Shown piece after piece: positions 9,943 through 36,813 of a DNA stretch of 36,813 nt. Position 1 is the stretch's first letter. Each line of letters opens with the position of its first letter. The translations under genes and the position numbers were made by a program. The stretch covers positions 1 to 36,813 of the forward strand of contig CAYQUB010000001.1 of assembly GCA_964420625.1 (NCBI GenBank), written 5' to 3'. The notes beneath the pieces are model-generated. The model saw only the letters and a list, made by a program, of their open reading frames with translations. It searched no databases and was not told the DNA's origin. The DNA comes from an uncultured Bacteroidales bacterium. GTDB lineage: Bacteria > Bacillota_I > Bacilli_A > ML615J-28 > CAG-698.

Positions 9943-10904
9943 ATTCTCGCAAGCAGCTCATCCAACAAGGACAGCAGTTCTTCCCTTCTAGAAACCAGGT
10001 TTAGTTTTTGGCGAAAATCTTTGCTGTGTTCGATCCCTTTCACATACCAAGCCGCCAGACTGCGCATTTCCAATAAAGCCATTTTCTCCGGTTTGATGCC
10101 AAGCAGCATCAAAAGATGCTTTTGGCACATCCGGATCTTTTCTTCGGGAGTCGGAGCCGGCTGGATCGCCCGGCCTTCAAAATGGTCTTTCAAATCGCGG
10201 ATGAGCCAGGGATTTCCGAAACTTCCCCGGCCGACCATGATCATGTCGGCGCCGGTGTAATCCAACATCCGCTGGGCATCGGCTACCGATCGGATGTCGC
10301 CGTTACCGATGATGGGGATCGTTACCGCGGTCTTTACGGCTTTGATGTAATCCAAGTTGACTTTTCCGGAATACATATCCGATTGCGTCCGGCCATGGAT
10401 GGTGATGAACGAGGCCCCTGCCCTTTCGGCGGCTTGGGCCACCTCCACGCAATTGATGCGGTTATGGCTTATTCCGGCCCGAATCTTGACGCTGACTGGC
10501 TTTTGAACGTTCTTCACGATTTCTTTCACCATGGCTTCGATCTTGTTCACATCGCTCAGCAGCTGGCATCCGCCTTCGGCTTTTAGGACTTTGCGAACCG
10601 GACAGCCCATGTTCAAATCTATGATGTCCGCGCTGGTTTTTTGGTCGATCATCATGGCGGCTTTCACCATCGAATCGATGTCGCCTCCGAAAATCTGGAT
10701 GGCGATCGGGTGTTCTTCCGGTTCGACCTCGGTGAGTTCCCAGGTTTTCTCATTATCATATAAAAGTCCTTTGGCGCTGATCATCTCCGAAAAGACCAAA
10801 TCGGCCCCGAATTCTTTCATGAGCATTCGGTAAGCGGGGTTGGTGTATCCGGCCAAAGGGGCCAAAGCGATTTTTCCGTTTATTTCCAGATTCTTTATTC
10901 TCAC
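9939..10904 (-). CDS. dusB: tRNA-dihydrouridine synthase B
   Basis: 321 aa. Motifs are LAPLAGYTNPAYR, DLNMGCPVRKV, IHGRT and IGNGDI. The start is GTG, preceded by GGAAGG. Confidence 0.85.
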   Translation of the reverse strand: MRIKNLEINGKIALAPLAGYTNPAYRMLMKEFGADLVFSEMISAKGLLYDNEKTWELTEVEPEEHPIAIQIFGGDIDSMVKAAMMIDQKTSADIIDLNMGCPVRKVLKAEGGCQLLSDVNKIEAMVKEIVKNVQKPVSVKIRAGISHNRINCVEVAQAAERAGASFITIHGRTQSDMYSGKVNLDYIKAVKTAVTIPIIGNGDIRSVADAQRMLDYTGADMIMVGRGSFGNPWLIRDLKDHFEGRAIQPAPTPEEKIRMCQKHLLMLLGIKPEKMALLEMRSLAAWYVKGIEHSKDFRQKLNLVSRREELLSLLDELLARI

Positions 10905-11065: not shown

Positions 11066-12069
11066 TGCCTGGTATTCGAGTACGAATGGCTTAGTACCTA
11101 TTACAGCGATGTCTTCCCAATCGACTCGTTTGATGCTTATTTGCAAGCCGTTTCGGACATCAATCTGGCAACCAATCTGCTGGTAATGCATCAAACCCAA
11201 AAAGAGTTCTTGAAGAGTATGGATCAAGGGATCTTAAGCGCTCTTAAGACAAAGTATTTGACTGAGTATACCGAGTTTTATGACCGTAACCACGCCATGG
11301 CCGCCGATGCGGACCTTCCGGAACTTGAAGCCCGGTTGGCTTGGTTCCAATCCCGCGTGAATGTGGCCGTCGAAACTTCCGCGCTTGATTAGCCATCAAG
11401 GAGTTCTATTGCTTCTGCTATAATCTGGTTTTGGATCCGGTCAAACCAGCCAAGATCAACAACGTTCGTTATTTGACCGAAAACGTAATTTGGTATTCAG
11501 AAACCGCCACCGACGCCAGCATCATGGACACGAACAATCTATTGGCAACTCATTCCGCCAACGTCAATGCCTGCATCGCCGTGGAAGACATTGAAGCGGA
11601 ATATGTAACCGCGGATTTCGCGATCTTCAGCGTTTATGTTGAAGACCCGGCCAAAATGGCGATCCGGACGGCCAAAAACGACGCTGAAGCCGAACTGTTC
11701 GATTATGTTGACTTCCTGGAACATTTCGTTCATGTCACCAATGTTGATGCCCTTTGTGAAATCTATGACGTCCGCCATGCCTTGATCGAAGCAGTCACCG
11801 CCCAGGCGGGCATCAGCCTCGCCATGAATATGGGTTTTGATGCCTTCCATGCGGCTGAACAATTGGACAGCCTTCTGGTCGAGAACTACCGGACAGCGCT
11901 GCTTCTTGACATGCAAAAGTACTGGGGCACATTGGTAAGCCCGACCGTGGAAATGGCCAACCTTCACGACATGTTCTATGACCAAATTGCCCTGGCTTTT
12001 CATCCTTTCATGATGAGCGTGATGATCAATGTTTATTACGCCGGCATGAATGGTTTGCTTGGCGAATAA
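11066..12069 (+). pseudogene. 5'-truncated, frameshifted remnant of a surface-protein gene paralogous to the helical region of the 1087-aa lipoprotein
   Basis: The two track ORFs (11141..11392 and 11431..12069) both start at TTG and have no ribosome-binding site. The first frame is open back to 11066 with no start codon or signal peptide. The second frame is open back to 11389, so a single frameshift near 11386-11392 would join them. The sequence style matches the repeat module of the downstream gene: ..YSETATDASIMDTNNLLATH.. versus ..FFATADSVIAMTAVYDEL.. and ..YIATADSLLAMQGVLDVH... The terminator hairpin resembles the one after the 1087-aa gene. Confidence 0.4.
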
Positions 12070-29457: not shown

Positions 29458-31198
29458 GGGTATCACCTTTGATTTGGTTCAGATATTGCATTTTATACCA
29501 GTTGTCATATTTGAGAAGTTCATTGTGCGTTCCTTGGGCGGTGATCACGCCATCTTGAAGAACCAGGATCTTGTCAGCCGCCGCGACCGCGGAAAAGCGA
29601 TGCGCCACGATGATGTTGGTTTTATCGCTCCTCGCCTGTTTTAGATTTCGGATGATGTTGGCTTCGGTCAGGGAATCCACGGCGCTCAAGGAATCATCCA
29701 AGATCAGGATTTCCGGATTCTTGACCAAAGCGCGGGCAATGGAAAGCCGCTGGCGCTGACCGCCGGAAAGCGATCCGCCCAGTTCCGCGACCATGGTGTC
29801 GATCCCGGATGGCAGTTCGCGCAGATCCTTTTTGAAATCCGCCAAAGATACGGCGGTGTCGATCTGACTTGGACTGGCATTGGGATTCCCGATGAGGATG
29901 TTGTCATCGACGGTCCTCCGAAACAGCACATGGTTTTGAGGAACGTACCCGACCAGGTTTCGGGCATCTTCGATCTTCAGTTTCCCGATGTCGGTCCCGT
30001 CAAACAAAATCTGGCCTTTGGTAACGTTGAATTCCCGAAGCAGCTGGCGGATGAGCGTGGATTTTCCGGCTCCGGTCGGCCCGACGATGCCGATGGTCTC
30101 GCCGCTGTTGATGGTGAAGGAGATGTTTTTGATGACGTCGAAATCATCAAACGGATATTTGAAACTGACGTTTTTAAATTCGATGGTTTTGAAACTGAAG
30201 ATCTCGCGAGCGGTTTCTTCGTCTTTTACTTCCGGCTCGAGATCCATGATCTCATAGAAACGTTCGTCGGAAATGATGATGTTGTTGACGGAGTTCAGAA
30301 TGTTCGAAAGCGCGACCAAAGGACCGTACAGCTGCCCGACATAAACGAGGAAAGTAACCAGATCGCCGGTGGAGATCTGGGACTTTAAGACCATGTAACT
30401 TCCGAAAGCAATGGCTACAAGGTAGGATACCGCGTAAACCATTTCAAACAATGGTCCGTAGACGGCTTCGAATTTGATGATCTTCCACCAGGAATTGATG
30501 TCCGCGTCAATGGCTTTTTTGGTCTTTTGAAAGTCATTTTCTTCCTGAGTGTAGGCCCGGACGGCTTTGGCGCCTTCAATCGACTCCAAAACCTTTTCGG
30601 TCATGTCCGCGTAGATCTCATGATGGGTTTTGTAATAAGCCCGTTTTTTCTGGCGCTGTTTGTTCAGCCAGAAAATGGCAAACGGCATGAGGATGACGCT
30701 CGCCAATGTCAGCCACGGATCGATCGTCAGCATGATGGCGATGGCCGAGATGACCATGCCGGTATTGAAGACCAGCGTCTGCAGAAACGAAGTCGCGAGG
30801 ACGGTCAGATTGTTCAGATCATTGCTGGCCCGGGAGATCAGATCGCCTTTGGTATATTTTTCGTAAATCGCGGAATCAAGTTCAAAAAGATGATCAATGT
30901 ATTTTTCGCGCAGCGCATAGGACAGTTTGTGTCCCAACCGGTTGATGTTCAGGTGATAGGCGATGGCCACGAAATACCGGCCGATCGGGATGGCCGCCAA
31001 AGTCAGGACCAAAAACACTAGCCGGTCAACGGTCAGGGTGCCGCTCGCAATTTCGTCGATGGCCATTCCCAGGATCTTGGCTGGCAAGACCGGAGTAATC
31101 GAAAGGATCAGCAGCAAAAAGGCCAGGCCGATGTATTTCTTGTATTCAACTTTGAAAAACCAACCTAAATGTTTATAGGCTTCTTTCAAGTTCCTCAC
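29444..31198 (-). CDS. ABC exporter, fused permease/ATPase subunit (degenerate-site half)
   Basis: Walker A is GPTGAGKST and the signature is LSGGQRQRLSIARAL. Walker B is ILILDDSLSAVD, with Asp in place of the catalytic Glu. Confidence 0.85.
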   Translation of the reverse strand: MRNLKEAYKHLGWFFKVEYKKYIGLAFLLLILSITPVLPAKILGMAIDEIASGTLTVDRLVFLVLTLAAIPIGRYFVAIAYHLNINRLGHKLSYALREKYIDHLFELDSAIYEKYTKGDLISRASNDLNNLTVLATSFLQTLVFNTGMVISAIAIMLTIDPWLTLASVILMPFAIFWLNKQRQKKRAYYKTHHEIYADMTEKVLESIEGAKAVRAYTQEENDFQKTKKAIDADINSWWKIIKFEAVYGPLFEMVYAVSYLVAIAFGSYMVLKSQISTGDLVTFLVYVGQLYGPLVALSNILNSVNNIIISDERFYEIMDLEPEVKDEETAREIFSFKTIEFKNVSFKYPFDDFDVIKNISFTINSGETIGIVGPTGAGKSTLIRQLLREFNVTKGQILFDGTDIGKLKIEDARNLVGYVPQNHVLFRRTVDDNILIGNPNASPSQIDTAVSLADFKKDLRELPSGIDTMVAELGGSLSGGQRQRLSIARALVKNPEILILDDSLSAVDSLTEANIIRNLKQARSDKTNIIVAHRFSAVAAADKILVLQDGVITAQGTHNELLKYDNWYKMQYLNQIKGDTHEEF

Positions 31199-31220
31199 CC
31201 CGCTTTGGAATGTTTATTTA

Positions 31221-32450
31221 TCAGTCTTGGCCAACCACGGCGTAATGGACATAAATGTTTTCACAAGCCGCAAGCATCGTTGTTAAATTGGCCAGATTGG
31301 CGCTTGGCGTGTAGATGTAATTTAACTTCGTGCACCAGCTAAACACGTGTTTGCCAAGCGACATGACGCTGCTCGGCACCACGATGGAAGTCAGTTTGCT
31401 GTTACCCCAGAAACCCCAAGCCCCAATGGTTGTGACCGTTGATTCCAAAGTTATGCTGAGCATTCCGGTGCAGCCGCTGAAAGCCGCTTCGCCGATGACC
31501 GGCGTCGGTATGACGATCGAGGACAACATCGTGCAGGCATTGAAGGCCTCGGTGCCGATGGTTAAAACGGAGACCGGAATGTTGACCGAAGTCAGATAAA
31601 CGCAGCCCGAGAAAGCTTGATTTCCGATGGCGGTGATGCCTTCCGGAATGGTAACGCCGGTTATGTCATCGTTGTTCAGAAAAGCTCCGTCCCCGATGGT
31701 GGTCACCGGAAGACCGTTGTAAGTTGCCATGATGACAACTTCCGGGCTGGTTCCGTCATATCCGCTCACCGAGTAAGTTTCCCCTTCGAGAACGTAGATG
31801 ACGCCCAGATCATCCTGGTCATACAAGGCCGTGACACTCAGGTCCCGGGTCACATCCAAGAAATCCTGATTCCAGCCCAGAAAGATATATCCTTCCCGAA
31901 CCGGATCGGCGGGAGCAGCGGCATCCGCTCCGTATTCCACCGTTTCGGTCTTGAGAATCGTTTCGTCATGATCAAAAAAGGTAACTTGATAAACATTGAT
32001 GGCATATAAAGCGTTGACGGTCAAATCGCCTTTTACATCGTTAAAGCCAATGTCCCAGCCGGTAAAAACATGACCCAAAACGGCGGTCGGGACCGGAGCG
32101 ACGGCGGCTTCCCCATACGCGACCTCCTGAGTTTCGATGACCGTGCCATCAAAGGCTTTGAAGGTCACGGTAAACATTAAGCTCTCCCACTTGGCAAAAA
32201 GAGTCAGATCCTTTTCGATGAGGGATTGGTTGGTGTACTCGGCTTGGTTTTCGTCAAACCAGCCCAGAAAAACATAACCTTCCTTTTCGGGAGTCGGCAG
32301 GACCGAAATCGCCGTGCCTTCCAAGGCGGTCATCGGAGATATTTCTCCAGCTCCGCCGGTGTCGAAAGTTACGGTATATTCTTGGCTCTGGCATCCCGCC
32401 AGCGACAGCAATAAAGTAATGATGATAAGGGCAATACTTATTTTTTTCAT
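31221..32450 (-). CDS. Surface lipoprotein with three Listeria-Bacteroides (Flg_new) repeats and a BspA-type leucine-rich repeat domain
   Basis: The lipobox signal peptide is MKKISIALIIITLLLSLAGC. Three repeats follow of the type YTVTF....EGYVFLGW......LTLFAKW. LRR_5-like repeats come after them (ITAIGNQAFSGCVYLTSVNIP, VLTIGTEAFNACTMLSSIVIP, VTTIGAWGFWGNSKLTSIVVP). The stop lies only 22 nt upstream of the ABC gene start. Confidence 0.8.
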   Translation of the reverse strand: MKKISIALIIITLLLSLAGCQSQEYTVTFDTGGAGEISPMTALEGTAISVLPTPEKEGYVFLGWFDENQAEYTNQSLIEKDLTLFAKWESLMFTVTFKAFDGTVIETQEVAYGEAAVAPVPTAVLGHVFTGWDIGFNDVKGDLTVNALYAINVYQVTFFDHDETILKTETVEYGADAAAPADPVREGYIFLGWNQDFLDVTRDLSVTALYDQDDLGVIYVLEGETYSVSGYDGTSPEVVIMATYNGLPVTTIGDGAFLNNDDITGVTIPEGITAIGNQAFSGCVYLTSVNIPVSVLTIGTEAFNACTMLSSIVIPTPVIGEAAFSGCTGMLSITLESTVTTIGAWGFWGNSKLTSIVVPSSVMSLGKHVFSWCTKLNYIYTPSANLANLTTMLAACENIYVHYAVVGQD

Positions 32451-32489
32451 ACAAATCTTCCTGTGGCTCTAATTTTGAAAACTTTAATC

Positions 32490-32518
32490 ATTATACTATG
32501 AATGAGGATTTTTTTCAA
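32490..32518 (-). promoter_or_regulatory. Candidate promoter of the lipoprotein-ABC operon
   Basis: On the minus strand: TTGAAA (32518-32513), a 17 nt spacer, then TATAAT (32495-32490). Confidence 0.5.
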
Positions 32519-32551
32519 ACGTTTTGTCCCGTTTCTAAGATAAATAAAAAT

Positions 32552-32622
32552 GATCCCGTCTTAAGTACCGATCTGACCTGATTCGCAGCTCAGTATTGGA
32601 TATAGGTACTTAAGACGGGATC
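32552..32622 (-). ncRNA. Candidate small structured RNA (about 75-85 nt), or an unusually long tadA terminator hairpin
   Basis: A perfect 18-bp inverted repeat (GATCCCGTCTTAAGTACC / GGTACTTAAGACGGGATC) encloses 35 nt that contain a smaller hairpin (CTGAGCTG-CGAAT-CAGGTCAG). On the minus strand it is followed by ATTTTTATTT. It is preceded by TTGAAA, a 17 nt spacer and TGtTATAAT. Confidence 0.3.
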
Positions 32623-32628
32623 GGTCTT

Positions 32629-32657
32629 ATTATAACAAATTTCTTTGGTTTTTTCAA
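32629..32657 (-). promoter_or_regulatory. Near-consensus promoter overlapping the tadA stop codon
   Basis: On the minus strand: TTGAAA (32657-32652, containing the tadA TGA), a 17 nt spacer, then TATAAT (32634-32629) with an extended TG. The predicted start falls at the first bases of the 18-bp hairpin arm. Confidence 0.45.
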
Positions 32658-33118
32658 GTCTCGGCCTTTTCGCGCAGTTTCTGAAAAAATTCTTTCATCA
32701 TGGTGCTGATTTCAACTTCATCAAGTCCCGAAGTCGCTTCAATTTGATGATTGAACCGGGTTTCTTTCGAAAGATCCATGATGCTTCCCAAAACCCCGAA
32801 CTTCGGCTCTTTGGCTCCGTAAACGACCCGTTTGATCCGGGCTTGAAAAATGGCTCCGGTGCACATTAGGCAAGGTTCCAAAGTAACGTAAAGCGTGGCG
32901 TCGTCCAAAAAACTCCGGCCCGTTTTTTTACAGGCCTTGTTGATGGCGATGATCTCCGCGTGCGCCAAAGCGCTCTTCTTGGCCACTCGCTGATTGTAGG
33001 CTCGGGCGATGACATGACCGTCTAACTCGATCACGCACCCGACCGGAACTTCATTTTTGCCTGCGGCGATCTTGGCTTGCCTGATCGCTTCTTTCATGAA
33101 AGTCAAATCATTTCCCAT
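32654..33118 (-). CDS. tadA: tRNA-specific adenosine(34) deaminase
   Basis: Motifs are [17 protein letters not shown] and [13 protein letters not shown] set the start at the ATG at 33118 ([15 protein letters not shown]), which matches the usual TadA N-terminus. The longer track ORF runs into tdk. Confidence 0.85.
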
Positions 33119-33701
33119 TCGGTTTTCCGGGGACAACATGGCAATGGCGGCACCGCGCCTCATATTGTTCCTGCGCTCCGACCAAGATGATCGGATCCGT
33201 GTAATTGGCCGGTTTTCCGTTGATGATCCTTTGCGTCCTCGTCGCCGGGGCGCCGCAAACCTGGCAGATGGCGTCCAGTTTGGTGACGAATTCCGCTCTC
33301 GCCAAAAGATCGGGCATGACTCCGAACGGTTCGCCGCGGAAATCTTTGTCCAGCCCGGCCACGATCACCCGCACGCCGCGGTTGGCCAAATCTTCGCAGA
33401 TGTCGATGAGGCCCCGAGACATGAACTGGGCTTCGTCGATGGCGATCGCGTAGGGCAATTTCGTTCCCAAATGTTCGTAAATTTCGCGCGGTTCGGTAAT
33501 CGCGATGGATTTCGCCCGCCCGTTGTTGTGCGATACCACTTCGTTGCTGCTGTAGCGAGTATCGATCAGCGGTTTAAAAACGACCACGCTCTTCTTCGCG
33601 TAATCGATCCTTTTGATCCTTCGCAGCAGTTCTTCCGTTTTCCCGGCGAACATGCTGCCCGCGATCACTTCGATCCAACCATCTTTGACTTGTAAATCCA
33701 T
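33108..33701 (-). CDS. tdk: Thymidine kinase
   Basis: 197 aa. Motifs are the P-loop [20 protein letters not shown] and the zinc ribbon C.VCG...C..C near the C-terminus. An AAGGAGA ribosome-binding site is present. Confidence 0.9.
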
Positions 33702-33793
33702 TTTACCATCTCCTTGAAAACATTATATAATATTCCGACCCGATTGGAAAGAATTTTTTTGCTTTTTTCCGGCCCCGGTTTCGCAAATTTTTC

Positions 33794-33822
33794 TTGACTT
33801 AAAAAACAAATTGGGGTATAAT
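33794..33822 (+). promoter_or_regulatory. Promoter of rpmE
   Basis: TTGACT (33794-33799), a 17 nt spacer, then TATAAT (33817-33822). Confidence 0.6.
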
Positions 33823-33875
33823 AACGAAGGTAACTTACTATAGGTTCAAATACTCTATGGCGGAAGGAGAAAAAT

Positions 33876-34106
33876 ATGAAAAAAGGAATTCATCCGAAAT
33901 ACAACACCGTAACGGTTGTTTGCACCACTTGTGGCAGCACCTTTGAAACCGGATCGGTTTTAAAAGAGATGCGGGTCGACACTTGCTCAAAATGTCATCC
34001 GTTCTACACCGGGCAGCAAAAGTTCATTCAAGCGGCTGGCCGGGTCGAAAGATTCAATAAACGCATGGCTCAAAAGCAAGAGCCAAGCCCAGACTCAAAC
34101 AAATAA
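33876..34106 (+). CDS. rpmE: 50S ribosomal protein L31 (zinc-ribbon type A)
   Basis: MKKGIHPKY...[14 protein letters not shown]...[36 protein letters not shown] ribosome-binding site is present. Confidence 0.9.
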
Positions 34107-34122
34107 GTTTGAGTTTTTTTGT
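34093..34122 (+). terminator. Rho-independent terminator of rpmE
   Basis: An ACTCAAAC-loop-GTTTGAG hairpin spans the stop codon and is followed by a T7 run. Confidence 0.6.
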
Positions 34123-34133
34123 TCTTTTTTTCA

Positions 34134-34171
34134 TTTTATTGGACATTCCAAATTAAAAATGTCCAATAAAA
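34134..34171. repeat. Perfect 13-bp inverted repeat (TTTTATTGGACAT / ATGTCCAATAAAA), with a third ATTGGACAT copy at 34190-34198
   Basis: Read directly from the sequence. The spacer is 12 nt. The repeat lies between rpmE and the 3' end of the deaminase-fusion gene. Confidence 0.5.
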
Positions 34172-34245
34172 ACTTATTTTAAATCTTTCATTGGACATTT
34201 TTTGCAAGAAATGGCTTAAAATCAAATAAAATCTTCAATACTCGA

Positions 34246-35730
34246 TTACTTCAATAATTTATATCGTCTTCCTCTATTGTCGCCTTCTGCACCTATCAGT
34301 CTCAGTTCCACCAACCGATTTAAATCTCGATAAGCGGATTTTAGGTCTCTCCCAGATTCTTTCGCATATTCTGTCTTTGTTGTGATTTTCCTCAGTTTCA
34401 AATATTGATAAGCAAAGAATTCATTCTCGTTCAAAGAAGAAAACACTCCATTAAGCGACTTTTGATAACTCTTAAAGGATCTATAAAAGGTTACAATTAA
34501 ATTGGGGTTGTTAAACTCGATATTTGGGTTATACAGAGCCTTCTTCGAATCAAATAATAAATTTTTAAAGCATTCCATTCCCTTTCTGTTTCCTTCATAA
34601 AAATGTATTTTCGAAAACAAAAAAGATAGTTTTGGATTACGCTGCAAAGTTGGCGCAGAAAAGTCCCGTAACTGGTCAATTGAAATTGGCGGAGTTGGAG
34701 ATCCGGGACTAAGTACCTCAATTTTGTCATTATCTATCGAAATTCGAATTTGGGCATCTTCTCTGCTATAATCCCGATGAATCACCGCATTTAAAACCGC
34801 TTCGCGTAAGGCTCTCAAAAGTGGTTCCGATCCGGTTAGCCCACTTACGACAAATTGGGAATTAACCACTGTTGAAAGCCATTGGAAAACTGCCTGAATC
34901 TCCAAGATCAACGGTCCAGAAAATGATTTGTTTGAACCGAAAGCAGAAGCTTTTATTTCGAATTGGGGGCATGTTTGGGAAGGAAATTTCCCAAACAGCA
35001 AAACTGCTGTTCGCGAAAAAGTATGAATGGCTTTTCCATTTTTCGACTCATTGTTTGTTATTCCGGAAATTTCCAAAAAATGCCAAAAATCCGGAGAATC
35101 ATATTCGGTTTTTGAACCCGAAAGTTCAAAATATTTTTGAAAAGCATCTTTTGAAAAATCTGAATAAAAATCCATCTTCGGAACAATTACATCAAGGTAA
35201 TGGACTTTCCCGTTTTCTTTTTGTTTTGTGTCCTCAAAATAAGCCCGCAAAGAAGCATCATCCAGAAAAGCTCGATTTTCATTAATTATTTCTTCTTGAA
35301 GGTCCTTGTCAAACATTTCAACTGCTATTCCATTATCCAATAAATACTCGTGTCCTTTTCCCGAGACAGAGGGATGAGGGTCTTGTATTCCCATGTATAC
35401 TTTTTTAATCCGTGCATTAACTATTCTTTCGGCGCAGGGAAGTTTTCCTTCTCCACGTGAATTGGGCGCACACGGTTCCAAAGTTGCAAACAAAATTGCT
35501 TCCTCAAGCTTCCTTGTTCGAAGTTTCTTATCAATTAGAGTGTATTCAGCATGATCGCCGGATCGAAATTCCCCCCGATATGCGGATTCCATTGTACCAT
35601 CATCAAAAAGAATAACCGCACCAACTTTTGGGGGAACCTTTCCGTCTTTCCTTTTTTCACAGCTTGACTGTTTCATGACATTTACCGCCAATGTCATGGC
35701 TTCTCGGATCTTTTTCTGATCATTAATCAT
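34246..35730 (-). CDS. Fusion protein with an N-terminal RibD-like zinc deaminase domain, a partial AlbA_2 region, an HATPase_c_4-type domain and a C-terminal winged helix
   Basis: Deaminase motifs are GDHAEYTLI and TLEPCAPNSRGEGKLPCAERI...VYMGIQDPHPSVSGKGHEYLLDNGIAVE. Then come ..TAVLLFGKFP..SGPL.., LREAVLNAVIHRDYS, IEVLSPG, LQRNPKL and YEGNRKGM. The C-terminal HTH-like region is ITTKTEYAKESGRDLKSAYRDLNRLVELRLI. I set the start at the ATG at 35730 (MINDQKK), which is preceded by AAGGGGGA. The track start at 35769 lies next to a TGtTATAAT -10 element (35775-35783). Confidence 0.75.
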   Translation of the reverse strand: MINDQKKIREAMTLAVNVMKQSSCEKRKDGKVPPKVGAVILFDDGTMESAYRGEFRSGDHAEYTLIDKKLRTRKLEEAILFATLEPCAPNSRGEGKLPCAERIVNARIKKVYMGIQDPHPSVSGKGHEYLLDNGIAVEMFDKDLQEEIINENRAFLDDASLRAYFEDTKQKENGKVHYLDVIVPKMDFYSDFSKDAFQKYFELSGSKTEYDSPDFWHFLEISGITNNESKNGKAIHTFSRTAVLLFGKFPSQTCPQFEIKASAFGSNKSFSGPLILEIQAVFQWLSTVVNSQFVVSGLTGSEPLLRALREAVLNAVIHRDYSREDAQIRISIDNDKIEVLSPGSPTPPISIDQLRDFSAPTLQRNPKLSFLFSKIHFYEGNRKGMECFKNLLFDSKKALYNPNIEFNNPNLIVTFYRSFKSYQKSLNGVFSSLNENEFFAYQYLKLRKITTKTEYAKESGRDLKSAYRDLNRLVELRLIGAEGDNRGRRYKLLK

Positions 35731-35912
35731 CAATCTTTCCCCCTTCCAAATTATTCCAATTGTTTTCAATTTGGATTATAACATAATAGCAAAAATAAAG
35801 AAATCTTTTTTAAAATTAAAAACTCACAATTTTCGGAAATTTCCCATAGATATTTATGTTTCTCAAAACTTTTTTCGTTTCTCAGTCTTAGAAATTTGTT
35901 AAACCGGATTTT

Positions 35913-36353
35913 TTAAACCTTCCGAACGGATTTATCATAATCCGCCGCGACCCATTTCTTGCCCTTTTGAATGATCTGGTGTCCCTCTTGCTCCAACCGG
36001 CGTTTGTGTTCGGCGATCCCGCCCGGGAACCGCTCGTTCAGTTCGCCCTTTTTCTTTAAAGTCCGCCAATAAGGGGTGATGTCGTCCGACCCCTGCTTCA
36101 TTCTTTTCGCGAAGGCATGAGCCGCCGAATTGGCAAAGATGCGGGCGGACATTCCCGCCGTTTCGTCGGCTCCGTGCTTTCGGGCCAGATAAAGGTTGAT
36201 CTCCTCATAGGTGATCAGTTGACCGGGTCCGGCCAGGCGCATCGCTTCGTCGTATTCCAGAGGCGAAGGAAGAATGACTTTTCGGCCTTCATTTTCTTCG
36301 ATCCGCGGAAAACCCTTGGTTCCCCGAAGCATTTCCTCATCAGTTTTTCCCAT
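35913..36353 (-). CDS. MGMT-family DNA-binding protein lacking the acceptor cysteine (alkyltransferase-like)
   Basis: 146 aa. LITYEEINLYLARKHG...SAAHAFA...ITPYWRTLKKKGELN matches the O6-alkylguanine transferase DNA-binding domain pattern (G.v.tY..iA....aaRaVG.A....iPcHRVv...G). PYWR sits where PCHR normally is. Confidence 0.6.
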   Translation of the reverse strand: MGKTDEEMLRGTKGFPRIEENEGRKVILPSPLEYDEAMRLAGPGQLITYEEINLYLARKHGADETAGMSARIFANSAAHAFAKRMKQGSDDITPYWRTLKKKGELNERFPGGIAEHKRRLEQEGHQIIQKGKKWVAADYDKSVRKV

Positions 36354-36371
36354 TGGTCCGTTCTTTCGCTT

Positions 36372-36399
36372 AAAAAAACTCCCGTAAAAATTACGGGAG
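36372..36399 (-). terminator. Rho-independent terminator after lemA
   Basis: On the minus strand, a CTCCCGTAA-TTT-TTACGGGAG hairpin is followed by a T7 run. Confidence 0.6.
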
Positions 36400-36407
36400 C
36401 ATTTTTC

Positions 36408-36813
36408 TTAAAATTTGACTTTCGGAGCTTCTCTTTGCGCTTCTTCAACGACTTGGAAGAATTGCGCGGCCTTGAAACCAAACAGGTTCGCGATGATGTT
36501 GCTCGGGAACAATTCGATTTTGTTATTGTAAGCCAAAACGGTGTCATTGTAAAATTGCCGGCTGAACGAGATCTTGTCTTCGGTGTCTTTCAGTTGCGCC
36601 ATCATGTCCTGGAAACTGACATTGGCTTTCAGTTCCGGATATTGTTCCGAAACCATGAGCAACCGGCTTAAGGTTCCGCCCAAAGTAGCGTTGGCTTGCG
36701 CCATCTGTTCGACGTTTCCGCTTTGTTGGCCTTGGGCATACAAGCCGCGGGCTTTCGCGAATTCTTCAAAAATTCCCTTTTCCAAACTAGCATAGCCTTT
36801 GACGGTCTCGGCC
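36408..36813 (-). CDS. lemA: LemA family protein, 5' end outside the window
   Basis: ..YASLEKGIFEEFAKARG...LSRLLMVSEQYPELKANVSFQDMMAQL..TEDKISFSRQFYNDTVLAYNNKIELFPSNIIANLFGF is the characteristic LemA C-terminal region. The frame stays open upstream of the track start (a TTG at 36785) to the window edge. Confidence 0.85.
   Translation of the reverse strand, partial: AETVKGYASLEKGIFEEFAKARGLYAQGQQSGNVEQMAQANATLGGTLSRLLMVSEQYPELKANVSFQDMMAQLKDTEDKISFSRQFYNDTVLAYNNKIELFPSNIIANLFGFKAAQFFQVVEEAQREAPKVKF

Follow-up and report, generated by a model that had tools for sequence, protein, structure and literature searches.

The window analysed here is contig CAYQUB010000001.1 of GenBank assembly GCA_964420625.1 at its full length (36,813 nucleotides, forward strand), which belongs to the metagenome-assembled genome of an uncultured member of the Bacilli. 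Between the ribosomal protein gene rpmE and a gene for an MGMT-like protein, this window contains an insert with a single gene whose product combines a RibD/RibG-like zinc deaminase, a GHKL core predicted to bind ATP and a C-terminal winged helix-turn-helix (wHTH). The deaminase occupies the slot that is normally held by a Schlafen (SLFN) RNase domain in the proteins with the "Schlatpase" supradomain, the combination of SLFN_AlbA_2 with PF13749 that was named in a 2026 preprint (10.64898/2026.05.29.728809). The features of the locus are as follows (aa, amino acids).

34121–35908, no strand: horizontally acquired 1.8-kb insert with a single gene (blastn breaks at 34120/35909; GC content)
34246–35730, minus strand: coding sequence of the deaminase-GHKL-wHTH protein, 494 aa plus stop (list of open reading frames; identity to database protein P0001)
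35236–35730, minus strand: RibD/RibG-like zinc deaminase domain, aa 1–165, with H60, E62, C87, C99 and R92, K96, D117 (Pfam, NCBIfam, phmmer, Foldseek)
34831–35235, minus strand: helical linker and LLFGK.P subdomain preceding the GHKL core, aa 166–300, common to canonical Schlatpases (BLASTP, PADLOC)
34441–34830, minus strand: GHKL core (PF13749, HATPase_c_4), predicted to bind ATP, aa 301–430 (Pfam, profile against 3LMM)
34249–34440, minus strand: C-terminal wHTH, aa 431–494 (weak TrmB and HVO_A0114 matches; alignment with an HTH_24 region; helix/strand pattern of the AlphaFold2 model)
35775–35783, minus strand: element TGTTATAAT of the insert, resembling an extended -10 promoter (direct reading of the sequence)
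34134–34202, minus strand: three copies of the palindromic unit TTATTGGACATT, in the 3' untranslated region of the inserted gene (repeat scan, pattern search)
33876–34106, plus strand: rpmE (Ribosomal_L31, 7.6e-32)
35913–36353, minus strand: MGMT-like DNA_binding_1 gene (Pfam)

An AT-rich single-gene insert

An initial reading of the DNA that relied on no database searches (hereafter, the sequence-only reading) had proposed an AT-rich single-gene insert at 34120–35912, and both composition and comparison with related genomes bear this out. The GC content of the insert is 0.359 against 0.484 ± 0.015 (minimum 0.444) in all other 1788-bp windows of the contig (z = -8.6), and the GC content at third codon positions (GC3) of the inserted gene is 0.325 against 0.617 ± 0.046 for the 17 other genes of the contig, a strong deviation by both measures. 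In four related assemblies (L002–L005, 88–90% nucleotide identity), the site is empty: the neighbourhood of LemA, MGMT-like, rpmE, tdk and tadA genes is intact, with AAAAAA separating the MGMT-like stop codon from the rpmE terminator. The blastn alignments with these assemblies break at 34120 and 35909, nearly exactly where the insert had been placed by eye. Both junctions lie within A-runs, which provide the only microhomology; a repeat scan and direct reading of the junctions revealed no clear target-site duplication, terminal inverted repeat, integrase or tRNA at the ends of the insert. The best candidate for a terminal inverted repeat was rejected, being merely AT-rich sequence with 73% complementarity.

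The site is filled in a more distant lineage (82% identity), represented by L001 and L006, the latter being Bacillales bacterium UBA2253. When positions 30001–36813 are compared with L001 and L002–L005, the gene is missing in the nearest relatives by flanking DNA (88–90%) and yet present in the farther one (82%), and the synonymous divergence (dS) of the inserted gene between the window and the UBA2253 lineage, 1.08, exceeds that of the flanking genes (0.46–0.67) about twofold. The distribution of the gene, together with dS, suggests that the gene was precisely lost or that homologous recombination carried the filled allele from one lineage to another. The ratio of nonsynonymous to synonymous divergence (dN/dS) between the two copies is 0.147/1.08 = 0.14, by which measure the window gene has evolved under purifying selection.

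As called mechanically, the single long open reading frame (ORF) between rpmE and the MGMT-like gene spans 34246–35769 on the minus strand and starts at TTG. The probable start is the ATG at 35730, with an AGGGGG ribosome-binding site at 35739–35744; the resulting 494-aa product is identical to the database protein P0001. The element TGTTATAAT (35783–35775, minus strand) is located about 45 nt upstream of this ATG, where the gene had been credited with an extended -10 promoter of its own; the element is indeed there, but a generic -35/-10 consensus scan missed it because a good -35 is missing. On the 3' side, the pattern search finds the three clustered copies of TTATTGGACATT where 0.26 would be expected in the whole window. 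These copies fold as alternative AT-rich terminator-like hairpins followed by a U-run (RNA fold z = -4.2) and are kept in the UBA2253-lineage copy in L001 (~11540–11580). Judging from the predicted fold, the hairpins are probably the terminator of the inserted gene, and the repeats may have a role in protein binding or recombination.

A RibD-like deaminase in the AlbA_2 slot

Searches against Pfam detect dCMP_cyt_deam_1 (PF00383; aa 20–127, 5.6e-13) and the AID/APOBEC-like model Inv-AAD (aa 77–162, 6.5e-12) in the N-terminal part of the protein, followed by HATPase_c_4 (PF13749; aa 339–422, 1.4e-8, 35 bits against a cutoff of 26) and weak wHTH matches (aa 446–501). The window protein yields no Pfam match to SLFN_AlbA_2 (PF04326) at E <= 0.1, and none to a P-loop domain or a RibD_C reductase domain. 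The sequence-only reading had described an AlbA_2/HATPase_c_4/wHTH module fused to the deaminase; of this module, HATPase_c_4 and the wHTH stand, but AlbA_2 has left neither a match nor a remnant. The LLFGK.P motif starts at aa 184 in canonical proteins, beyond PF04326 (aa 7–112), and therefore belongs to the subdomain that precedes GHKL; with the motif thus placed and no Pfam match, a partial AlbA_2 domain persisting in the window protein is ruled out.

From aa ~238 to the C-terminus, the scaffold is retained. An AlphaFold2 model built on 118 homologues (pLDDT, the predicted local distance difference test, 90.3; pTM, the predicted template modelling score, 0.84) has as its top whole-chain match in the PDB, by Foldseek, 3LMM (DIP2311, of the AlbA_2-HATPase_c_4-wHTH family; E 1e-10), with which the family profile is colinear (positions 273–405 against residues 263–393 of the chain, E 3.8e-10). 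BLASTP aligns aa 238–494 of the window protein with aa 184–447 of a plasmid-encoded SLFN-GHKL-wHTH protein of Arcobacter (28% identity over 257 aa, E 2e-13), which consists of SLFN_AlbA_2 (7–112), HATPase_c_4 (282–360) and HTH_24 (388–433) and whose gene overlaps the start of hsdR. Pfam, the colinearity with 3LMM and the Arcobacter comparison agree in placing the RibD-like deaminase in the slot of AlbA_2, as had been recognized from the sequence alone. The best PADLOC match is a SIR2-fused protein (SIR2-PNTD1-PNTD2 model; aa 244–357, 6e-12); this match is partial and covers the common pre-GHKL region, suggesting a third effector on the same scaffold. A partial match to the PADLOC dCTPase model PDLC02373 is also found (15.8 bits, E 0.0012). 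The exhaustive protein search further returned P0277 (2,918 aa), which has two HATPase_c_4 and two SLFN_AlbA_2 stretches and several HTH regions, and residues 1148–1472 of which match the C-terminal module of the deaminase family (E 1e-78).

The RibD type proposed at the outset for the N-terminus is confirmed by the best matches in NCBIfam, phmmer and Foldseek. The best NCBIfam model is that of RibD, matched in its deaminase half (TIGR00326; positions 17–134 of 343, 63.6 bits against a cutoff of 156.35), and the TadA model NF008113 scores 18.4 bits against a cutoff of 150; the real tadA of the host is located at 32654–33163. Among PDB sequences, phmmer finds RibD at 1.5e-11 and TadA-type tRNA deaminases at 1e-5 (7e-10 with the family profile). 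The modelled N-terminal domain superposes on RibD/RibG at a root-mean-square deviation of 2.2–2.9 Å over ~155 residues (27–31% identity, E ~1e-9), with human dCMP deaminase next (~1e-5) and APOBECs only at ~4e-3. Given that the best sequence and structure matches are RibD/RibG, the protein might be taken for a metabolic enzyme, a divergent form of RibD or dCMP deaminase serving in the synthesis of riboflavin or the salvage of pyrimidines. This appears hardly tenable: the TIGR00326 score is far below the cutoff, the RibD_C reductase domain is missing, the composition is foreign, close relatives of the host lack the gene, which is interrupted by a nonsense mutation in another lineage, and Pfam identifies no riboflavin or pyrimidine pathway family among 160 neighbour proteins from 77 loci of homologues.

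Conservation was assessed in an alignment of 118 sequences (mean column identity 49%; 38 invariant columns). The zinc ligands and the catalytic Glu (H60, E62, C87 and C99) are invariant in all 118, and the motifs H60-A-E62 and P86-C87-x11-C99, from which the zinc-deaminase ligands had originally been read, are present in the window protein. R52, R56, R92, K96, R107 and D117 are further invariant residues of the deaminase domain; in the GHKL domain, E310 and N314 (ExxxN), H318, R319 and Y321 around D320, S341 and G343 around P342, and R364, N365 and G384 are invariant, and E379 nearly so (117/118). The window deaminase also possesses the HxE motif, an enlarged Cys-Cys insert and the DPxP loop; the RibD-like clade has been defined by a conserved His in the Cys-Cys insert, HxE and an extended strand4-helix4 loop (Iyer et al., 2011; PMC3239186).

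Two residues of BsRibG that contact the substrate, Lys79, which forms a salt bridge to the phosphate, and Asp101, which contacts the ribose 2'/3'-OH (PMC8256712), correspond in the phmmer alignment to the invariant R92 and D117, and a third contact residue, Asn103, is aligned with position 119, where 117 of the 118 sequences have D, H or N. These RibG-type contacts point to a nucleotide-like substrate with a ribose-phosphate and, in combination with the structural neighbours, indicate that a free nucleotide would be the most likely substrate of the deaminase. As the main alternative, the same defence scaffold could carry a deaminase that edits a polynucleotide, either tRNA, which would be a functional counterpart to tRNA cleavage by the replaced Schlafen domain, or phage DNA, including single-stranded DNA, in an APOBEC- or DddA-like mutagenesis. 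The replaced SLFN domain targets tRNA, TadA-type tRNA deaminases and Inv-AAD are detectable relatives at the E-values given above, the invariant R52, R56, K96 and R107 are extra basic residues, and the wHTH is a predicted nucleic-acid-binding domain. Nevertheless, we consider polynucleotide editing rather unlikely, with mononucleotide-type enzymes (RibD/RibG, then dCMP deaminase) by far the nearest structures, dCMP deaminases as the viral structural matches, and the RibG contacts with the ribose and phosphate of a mononucleotide-like ligand conserved.

Spread and genomic setting of the family

The sequence-only reading did not recognize this architecture as a described one. In the full-text literature, including the surveys of Schlafen architectures, we found no published description of a fusion of a deaminase with GHKL/HATPase_c_4, but the family is by no means rare. 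When 1.84 billion representatives are searched exhaustively with a profile, 1,349 proteins match at E <= 1e-30 (~1,349 clusters at 50% identity), at least 487 family loci out of 500 pattern hits are confirmed among genomes sampled at one per GTDB species, and among the matches listed by a word-indexed search, all 120 are proteins of ~500 aa with PF00383 and PF13749. The deaminase-GHKL-wHTH architecture is thus common and yet, as far as we could determine, undescribed. For comparison, 55 Schlafen architectures have been catalogued, Slfn-HisKinase and Slfn-HisKinase-HTH foremost (Taboada et al., 10.1101/2025.07.24.666596), and the Schlatpase pair is present in 60,692 of 103,533 prokaryotic Schlafen proteins, mostly small ones with or without a C-terminal HTH (10.64898/2026.05.29.728809).

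Family members are encoded in Bacteroidota, Cyanobacteria/Melainabacteria, Planctomycetota, Verrucomicrobiota, Proteobacteria, Acidobacteriota, Actinomycetes, Armatimonadota, Bipolaricaulota and Saccharibacteria and, among the Archaea, in Thermoplasmatota and Methanoregula. Nearest neighbours cross phylum and domain boundaries at 60–78% identity; for example, archaeal copies share 61–63% identity with a proteobacterial copy, and one from Coprothermobacterota shares 78% with a Bacteroidetes copy. Judging from these identities, horizontal transfer of the family is clear. The window protein and its UBA2253 counterpart form an outlying branch, ~40% identical to all other members, which is the most divergent clade. 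No full-length member is present in INPHARED (50,697 phage records), PLSDB (72,556 plasmids), IMG/VR or BFVD, where only separate deaminases or Schlatpase-type C-terminal modules are found; the idea of a phage-encoded counter-defence was dropped on these grounds. The N-terminal extensions of three members (P0152, P0176 and P0185) contain no Pfam domain and may be due to mis-called starts.

In 36 of the 77 loci (22 of the 46 with full flanks), restriction-modification (RM) or other defence genes, among them those for OLD proteins and prokaryotic Argonautes (pAgo), are found within three genes of the family member, a count with no matched random control behind it. Considering the usual copy number of RM systems, fewer than about 1% of random genes would be expected this close to a type I system. 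Components of type I RM systems (HsdM, HsdS and HsdR, including the EcoEI type) are within three genes in 25 loci, an OLD-family ATPase is nearby in four, and SNF2 with NOV_C in two. A Pfam scan of the 160 remaining neighbours at positions ±2 adds 10 Methylase_S, 5 EcoEI_R_C, HamA, YhcG and RhuM, the others being unrelated housekeeping proteins. In five loci from unrelated taxa of Planctomycetota, Armatimonadota and Azophilus (L012, L016, L022, L038 and L071), the order is Res > gene > Mod, with a Res-like helicase of ~1020–1060 aa and an N6_N4 methyltransferase of ~930–965 aa. The family gene is co-directional with its RM or defence partners, and the coding ends overlap or abut (e.g., L032, L038, L010 and L078): the end of HsdS and the start of the gene coincide at 10001 in L032, the gene (from 9831) overlaps Res (to 9834) by 4 bp in L038, and in L010 the last position of HsdR, 9958, immediately precedes the start of the gene at 9959. 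How many additional effectors type I RM operons can host is illustrated by an Arcobacter plasmid (L133, CP146529; 43–9884), where a string of accessory genes is embedded in such an operon in the order HsdS, hypothetical protein, SLATT-domain protein, DUF87 ATPase, Schlafen-GHKL-wHTH protein, HsdR and then SprT.

Four loci from Bacteroidota encode a Piwi-domain protein (long pAgo-like, 680–729 aa), co-directional with and within two genes of the deaminase gene, and in two of these (L030 and L042), an ORF of 103–166 aa overlaps the end of the deaminase gene. The loci are:

L023, 7727–11491
L030, 10001–14045
L042, 9989–13874
L075, 9971–14088

By analogy with the published SLFN-pAgo fusion, these could be pAgo systems with the deaminase protein as the effector.

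The C-terminal wHTH, which is conserved in the family, the TTATTGGACATT palindromes next to the inserted gene and the many homologues, about half, that are located away from defence genes would all be accounted for by a ligand-responsive transcriptional regulator, the role that the usual annotation of this scaffold implies: the wHTH would recognize operators, a nucleotide or metabolite would merely be sensed by the deaminase-like and GHKL domains, and the protein would control the adjacent RM genes or serve in housekeeping. This, too, appears improbable. Both full catalytic sets are invariant in the 118 sequences, which is unexpected for a pure sensor; the palindromes are located 3' of the gene and fold as a terminator; the homologous SLFN scaffold is a demonstrated ATP-gated effector (RzAgo, see below); and patchy horizontal transfer, presence/absence polymorphism and pseudogenization are atypical of a housekeeping regulator.

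As for the surroundings of the insert in the window, the rest of the 36.8-kb contig is of the housekeeping type according to Pfam (glycosidases, LD-carboxypeptidase, ABC exporters, a GGDEF protein and glycosyltransferases). The MGMT-like protein has only a DNA_binding_1 match below the threshold (21.4 bits against 27) and TPYWR in place of the PCHR active site of alkyltransferases; its gene, which is only 104 aa long as called in L001, is also present at the empty sites and is therefore outside the insert. The mechanical calls of tdk (33108–33701) and tadA (32654–33163), on the minus strand, overlap by 56 nt, and the true tadA start is probably further downstream than called. An Rfam scan of 33.7–36.45 kb gave no match at the gathering score; below it are an L31-Firmicutes ribosomal leader just upstream of rpmE (33838–33869, plus strand; 23.7 bits against 33.3) and a ylbH leader (36303–36409, minus strand; 25.5 bits against 50).

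Proposed function and related systems

Taken together, the genomic association and the homology lead us to favour, at a probability of roughly 0.6, the reading that the inserted gene encodes an effector-swapped Schlatpase: a horizontally acquired, ATP-gated deaminase that probably acts on nucleotides and is used in defence. The only precedent is RzAgo, where the GHKL domain binds and hydrolyses ATP via E314 and N318, which bind the gamma-phosphate and Mg, and where ATP binding drives tetramerization and thereby assembles the active Schlafen tRNase (10.64898/2026.05.29.728809). If the analogy with RzAgo is valid, the GHKL domain would oligomerize on binding ATP and so gate the N-terminal effector, with the wHTH supplying DNA binding or sensing. 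Once activated, the deaminase would attack a pyrimidine- or guanine-type substrate that bears a ribose-phosphate, free (deoxy)nucleotides being the likeliest, and the nucleotide pool needed by the phage would be depleted or corrupted, as in the dCTP deaminase defences, the protein being a second line of defence or an effector of abortive infection. The gene would be co-transcribed with type I or type III RM genes in many genomes, perhaps guarding them as PrrC does; the window copy, being solo and equipped with a promoter-like element and a terminator of its own, would act autonomously or in trans. PrrC is a precedent for an effector embedded in an RM operon (PMC12707154), and by this analogy, a guard role of the RM-embedded family members is plausible. 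In this proposal, the insertion, the exchange of domains, the conserved catalytic residues, the genomic association and the horizontal transfer are observed, and the ATP gating, the substrate and the antiviral role are inferred.

The published data on Schlafen proteins provide the background for this proposal. Proteins of the pAgo, NACHT and type I RM kinds have swapped the Schlatpase module with one another (10.64898/2026.05.29.728809), more than half of the defence-associated Schlafen homologues are linked to RM and other nucleases (PMC13462974), and Schlafen-minimal-HisK-wHTH proteins, proposed to be backup effectors, are encoded in bacteriophage exclusion (BREX) loci of at least 1,017 taxa (PMC12839542). 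The RibD-like clade itself has been assigned only to riboflavin biosynthesis (Iyer et al., 2011; PMC3239186), and in the literature we found no defence role for the RibD branch of the deaminase fold.

Several observations weigh against the proposal of an effector-swapped Schlatpase. The window copy is solo, with no RM or other defence gene identified by Pfam elsewhere on the contig, and about half of the homologues are found among housekeeping genes, not near defence genes. The context of the 77 loci comes from a crude ORF caller and profiles seeded by Pfam-verified neighbours, and PADLOC v2 has no model for the deaminase-GHKL-wHTH family. With regard to the substrate, RibD itself deaminates a guanine-derived pyrimidine rather than a canonical nucleotide, and the Cys-Cys insert lacks the RibD-specific His, with P89 in its place and a His at position 94 in only 50 of the 118 sequences, so that base specificity cannot be inferred from homology. 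Furthermore, the orthologue of the UBA2253 lineage (L001, 11060–11090; L006) contains an in-frame TAA at about codon 359, where the window has a Phe codon, and activity in this clade is therefore not guaranteed. Finally, the window protein deviates at 8 of the 102 columns that are at least 90% conserved, the other sequences having a median of 2 and a maximum of 10 such deviations.

The TAA falls within the GHKL core (aa 301–430), just before the RNP motif, and splits the gene into ORFs of 358 and 120 aa, the part downstream being otherwise intact; a frameshift, considered as another cause, is ruled out by the DNA. The 358-aa product is P0002, and the same 90% cluster has members of 369 and 323 aa from other assemblies (P0122 and P0123). 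Together with the absence of the gene from close relatives, the stop codon in the sister lineage fits a dispensable, possibly costly accessory gene. The window gene itself could be inert cargo, that is, a copy that arrived recently, is decaying or is silent and at present serves no function, considering that it is solo, belongs to the most divergent clade, deviates at conserved columns, has a counterpart with a premature stop and shows dN above that of the flanking genes. We regard this as very improbable, given that the 494-codon ORF is intact and retains all 38 invariant columns, that dN/dS is 0.14 over a dS of ~1, and that an extended -10, a ribosome-binding site and a terminator are predicted for the gene.

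As regards the interpretation offered by the sequence-only reading, namely single-gene defence or nucleotide sensing, the computable checks that it named (composition, homologues near defence genes, no riboflavin or pyrimidine operons, and a predicted structure in which the deaminase superposes on RibD/RibG) all came out in favour, and because of this the interpretation is, by association, supported. The single-gene qualification holds for the window copy, but roughly one in two homologues resembles an accessory gene of an RM operon.

A bolder version of the proposed defence role starts from the chemistry of RibD, whose pocket removes the 2-amino group of a GTP-derived pyrimidine. The family might then be a new class of antiviral deaminases that convert guanine-type nucleotides (GTP/dGTP to XTP/dXTP) or attack a modified nucleotide specific to phages, with an ATP-driven GHKL oligomerization switch that responds to engagement or inhibition of the partner restriction enzyme or pAgo; we consider this unlikely and put it forward as speculation. 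If it were true, RNase, SIR2 and deaminase would be interchangeable effectors of one general immune switch, the Schlatpase scaffold.

Schlafen-GHKL-wHTH proteins have only recently been recognized as belonging to the most abundant prokaryotic immune scaffolds, with the first mechanism described in 2026, and the same scaffold carries a wholly different effector in more than 1,000 protein clusters from Bacteria and Archaea. If the favoured reading of an effector-swapped Schlatpase is true, the GHKL-wHTH part would be a portable switch or sensor, the two families would provide a natural comparison that separates sensing from effector chemistry, and the RibD branch would contribute a candidate deaminase-based defence. 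A RibD-type pocket on an ATP-gated switch could also interest developers of base- or nucleotide-modifying tools. For genome annotation, the analysis corrects the labels "RecG helicase", "ATP-binding protein" and "RibD-like" on genes of this family.

Among known systems, Cad1 and RdrB of RADAR are functional analogues only, being TIM-barrel adenosine deaminases. The dCTP deaminases DCD/AvcD are closer, in that a deaminase of the cytidine deaminase fold is the antiviral effector (as proposed here) and is regulated within a larger multidomain protein; however, they have an N-terminal P-loop kinase-like domain, and the window family belongs to the RibD-like subclade rather than the dCMP/ComEB-like one. 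With PrrC/RloC, the RM-embedded family members share the operon position between hsd genes with overlapping coding ends, but the proteins are unrelated (ABC-ATPase and anticodon nuclease versus GHKL and deaminase), and the window copy has no RM partner. RibD/RibG share with the window family the fold, HxE, the enlarged insert between the Cys ligands, the DPxP loop and the equivalents of the ribose- and phosphate-contacting residues. Unlike RibD/RibG, the window family lacks the reductase domain, scores below the TIGR00326 cutoff, is fused to the GHKL-wHTH scaffold, has a Cys-Cys insert of 11 rather than 8 residues devoid of the conserved His, and has no rib-operon neighbour in the 77 loci.

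The closest counterparts are the Schlatpases themselves, known also as COG2865, pSlfn-HisKinase-HTH or the PDB 3LMM/DIP2311 family. In both families, the LLFGK.P region, the GHKL core (ExxxN, HRDY, SPG and RNP) and the wHTH follow each other colinearly in proteins of similar size with a patchy pattern of horizontal transfer, and the ExxxN residues E310 and N314 of the window protein are the equivalents of RzAgo E314 and N318. Both occupy the same niche, within type I RM operons or adjoining pAgo or BREX. The difference is in the effector: the Schlafen RNase is fully replaced by a RibD-like zinc deaminase in the window protein, and the chemistry predicted for its family is hydrolytic deamination, in contrast to the cleavage of tRNA by the Schlatpases.

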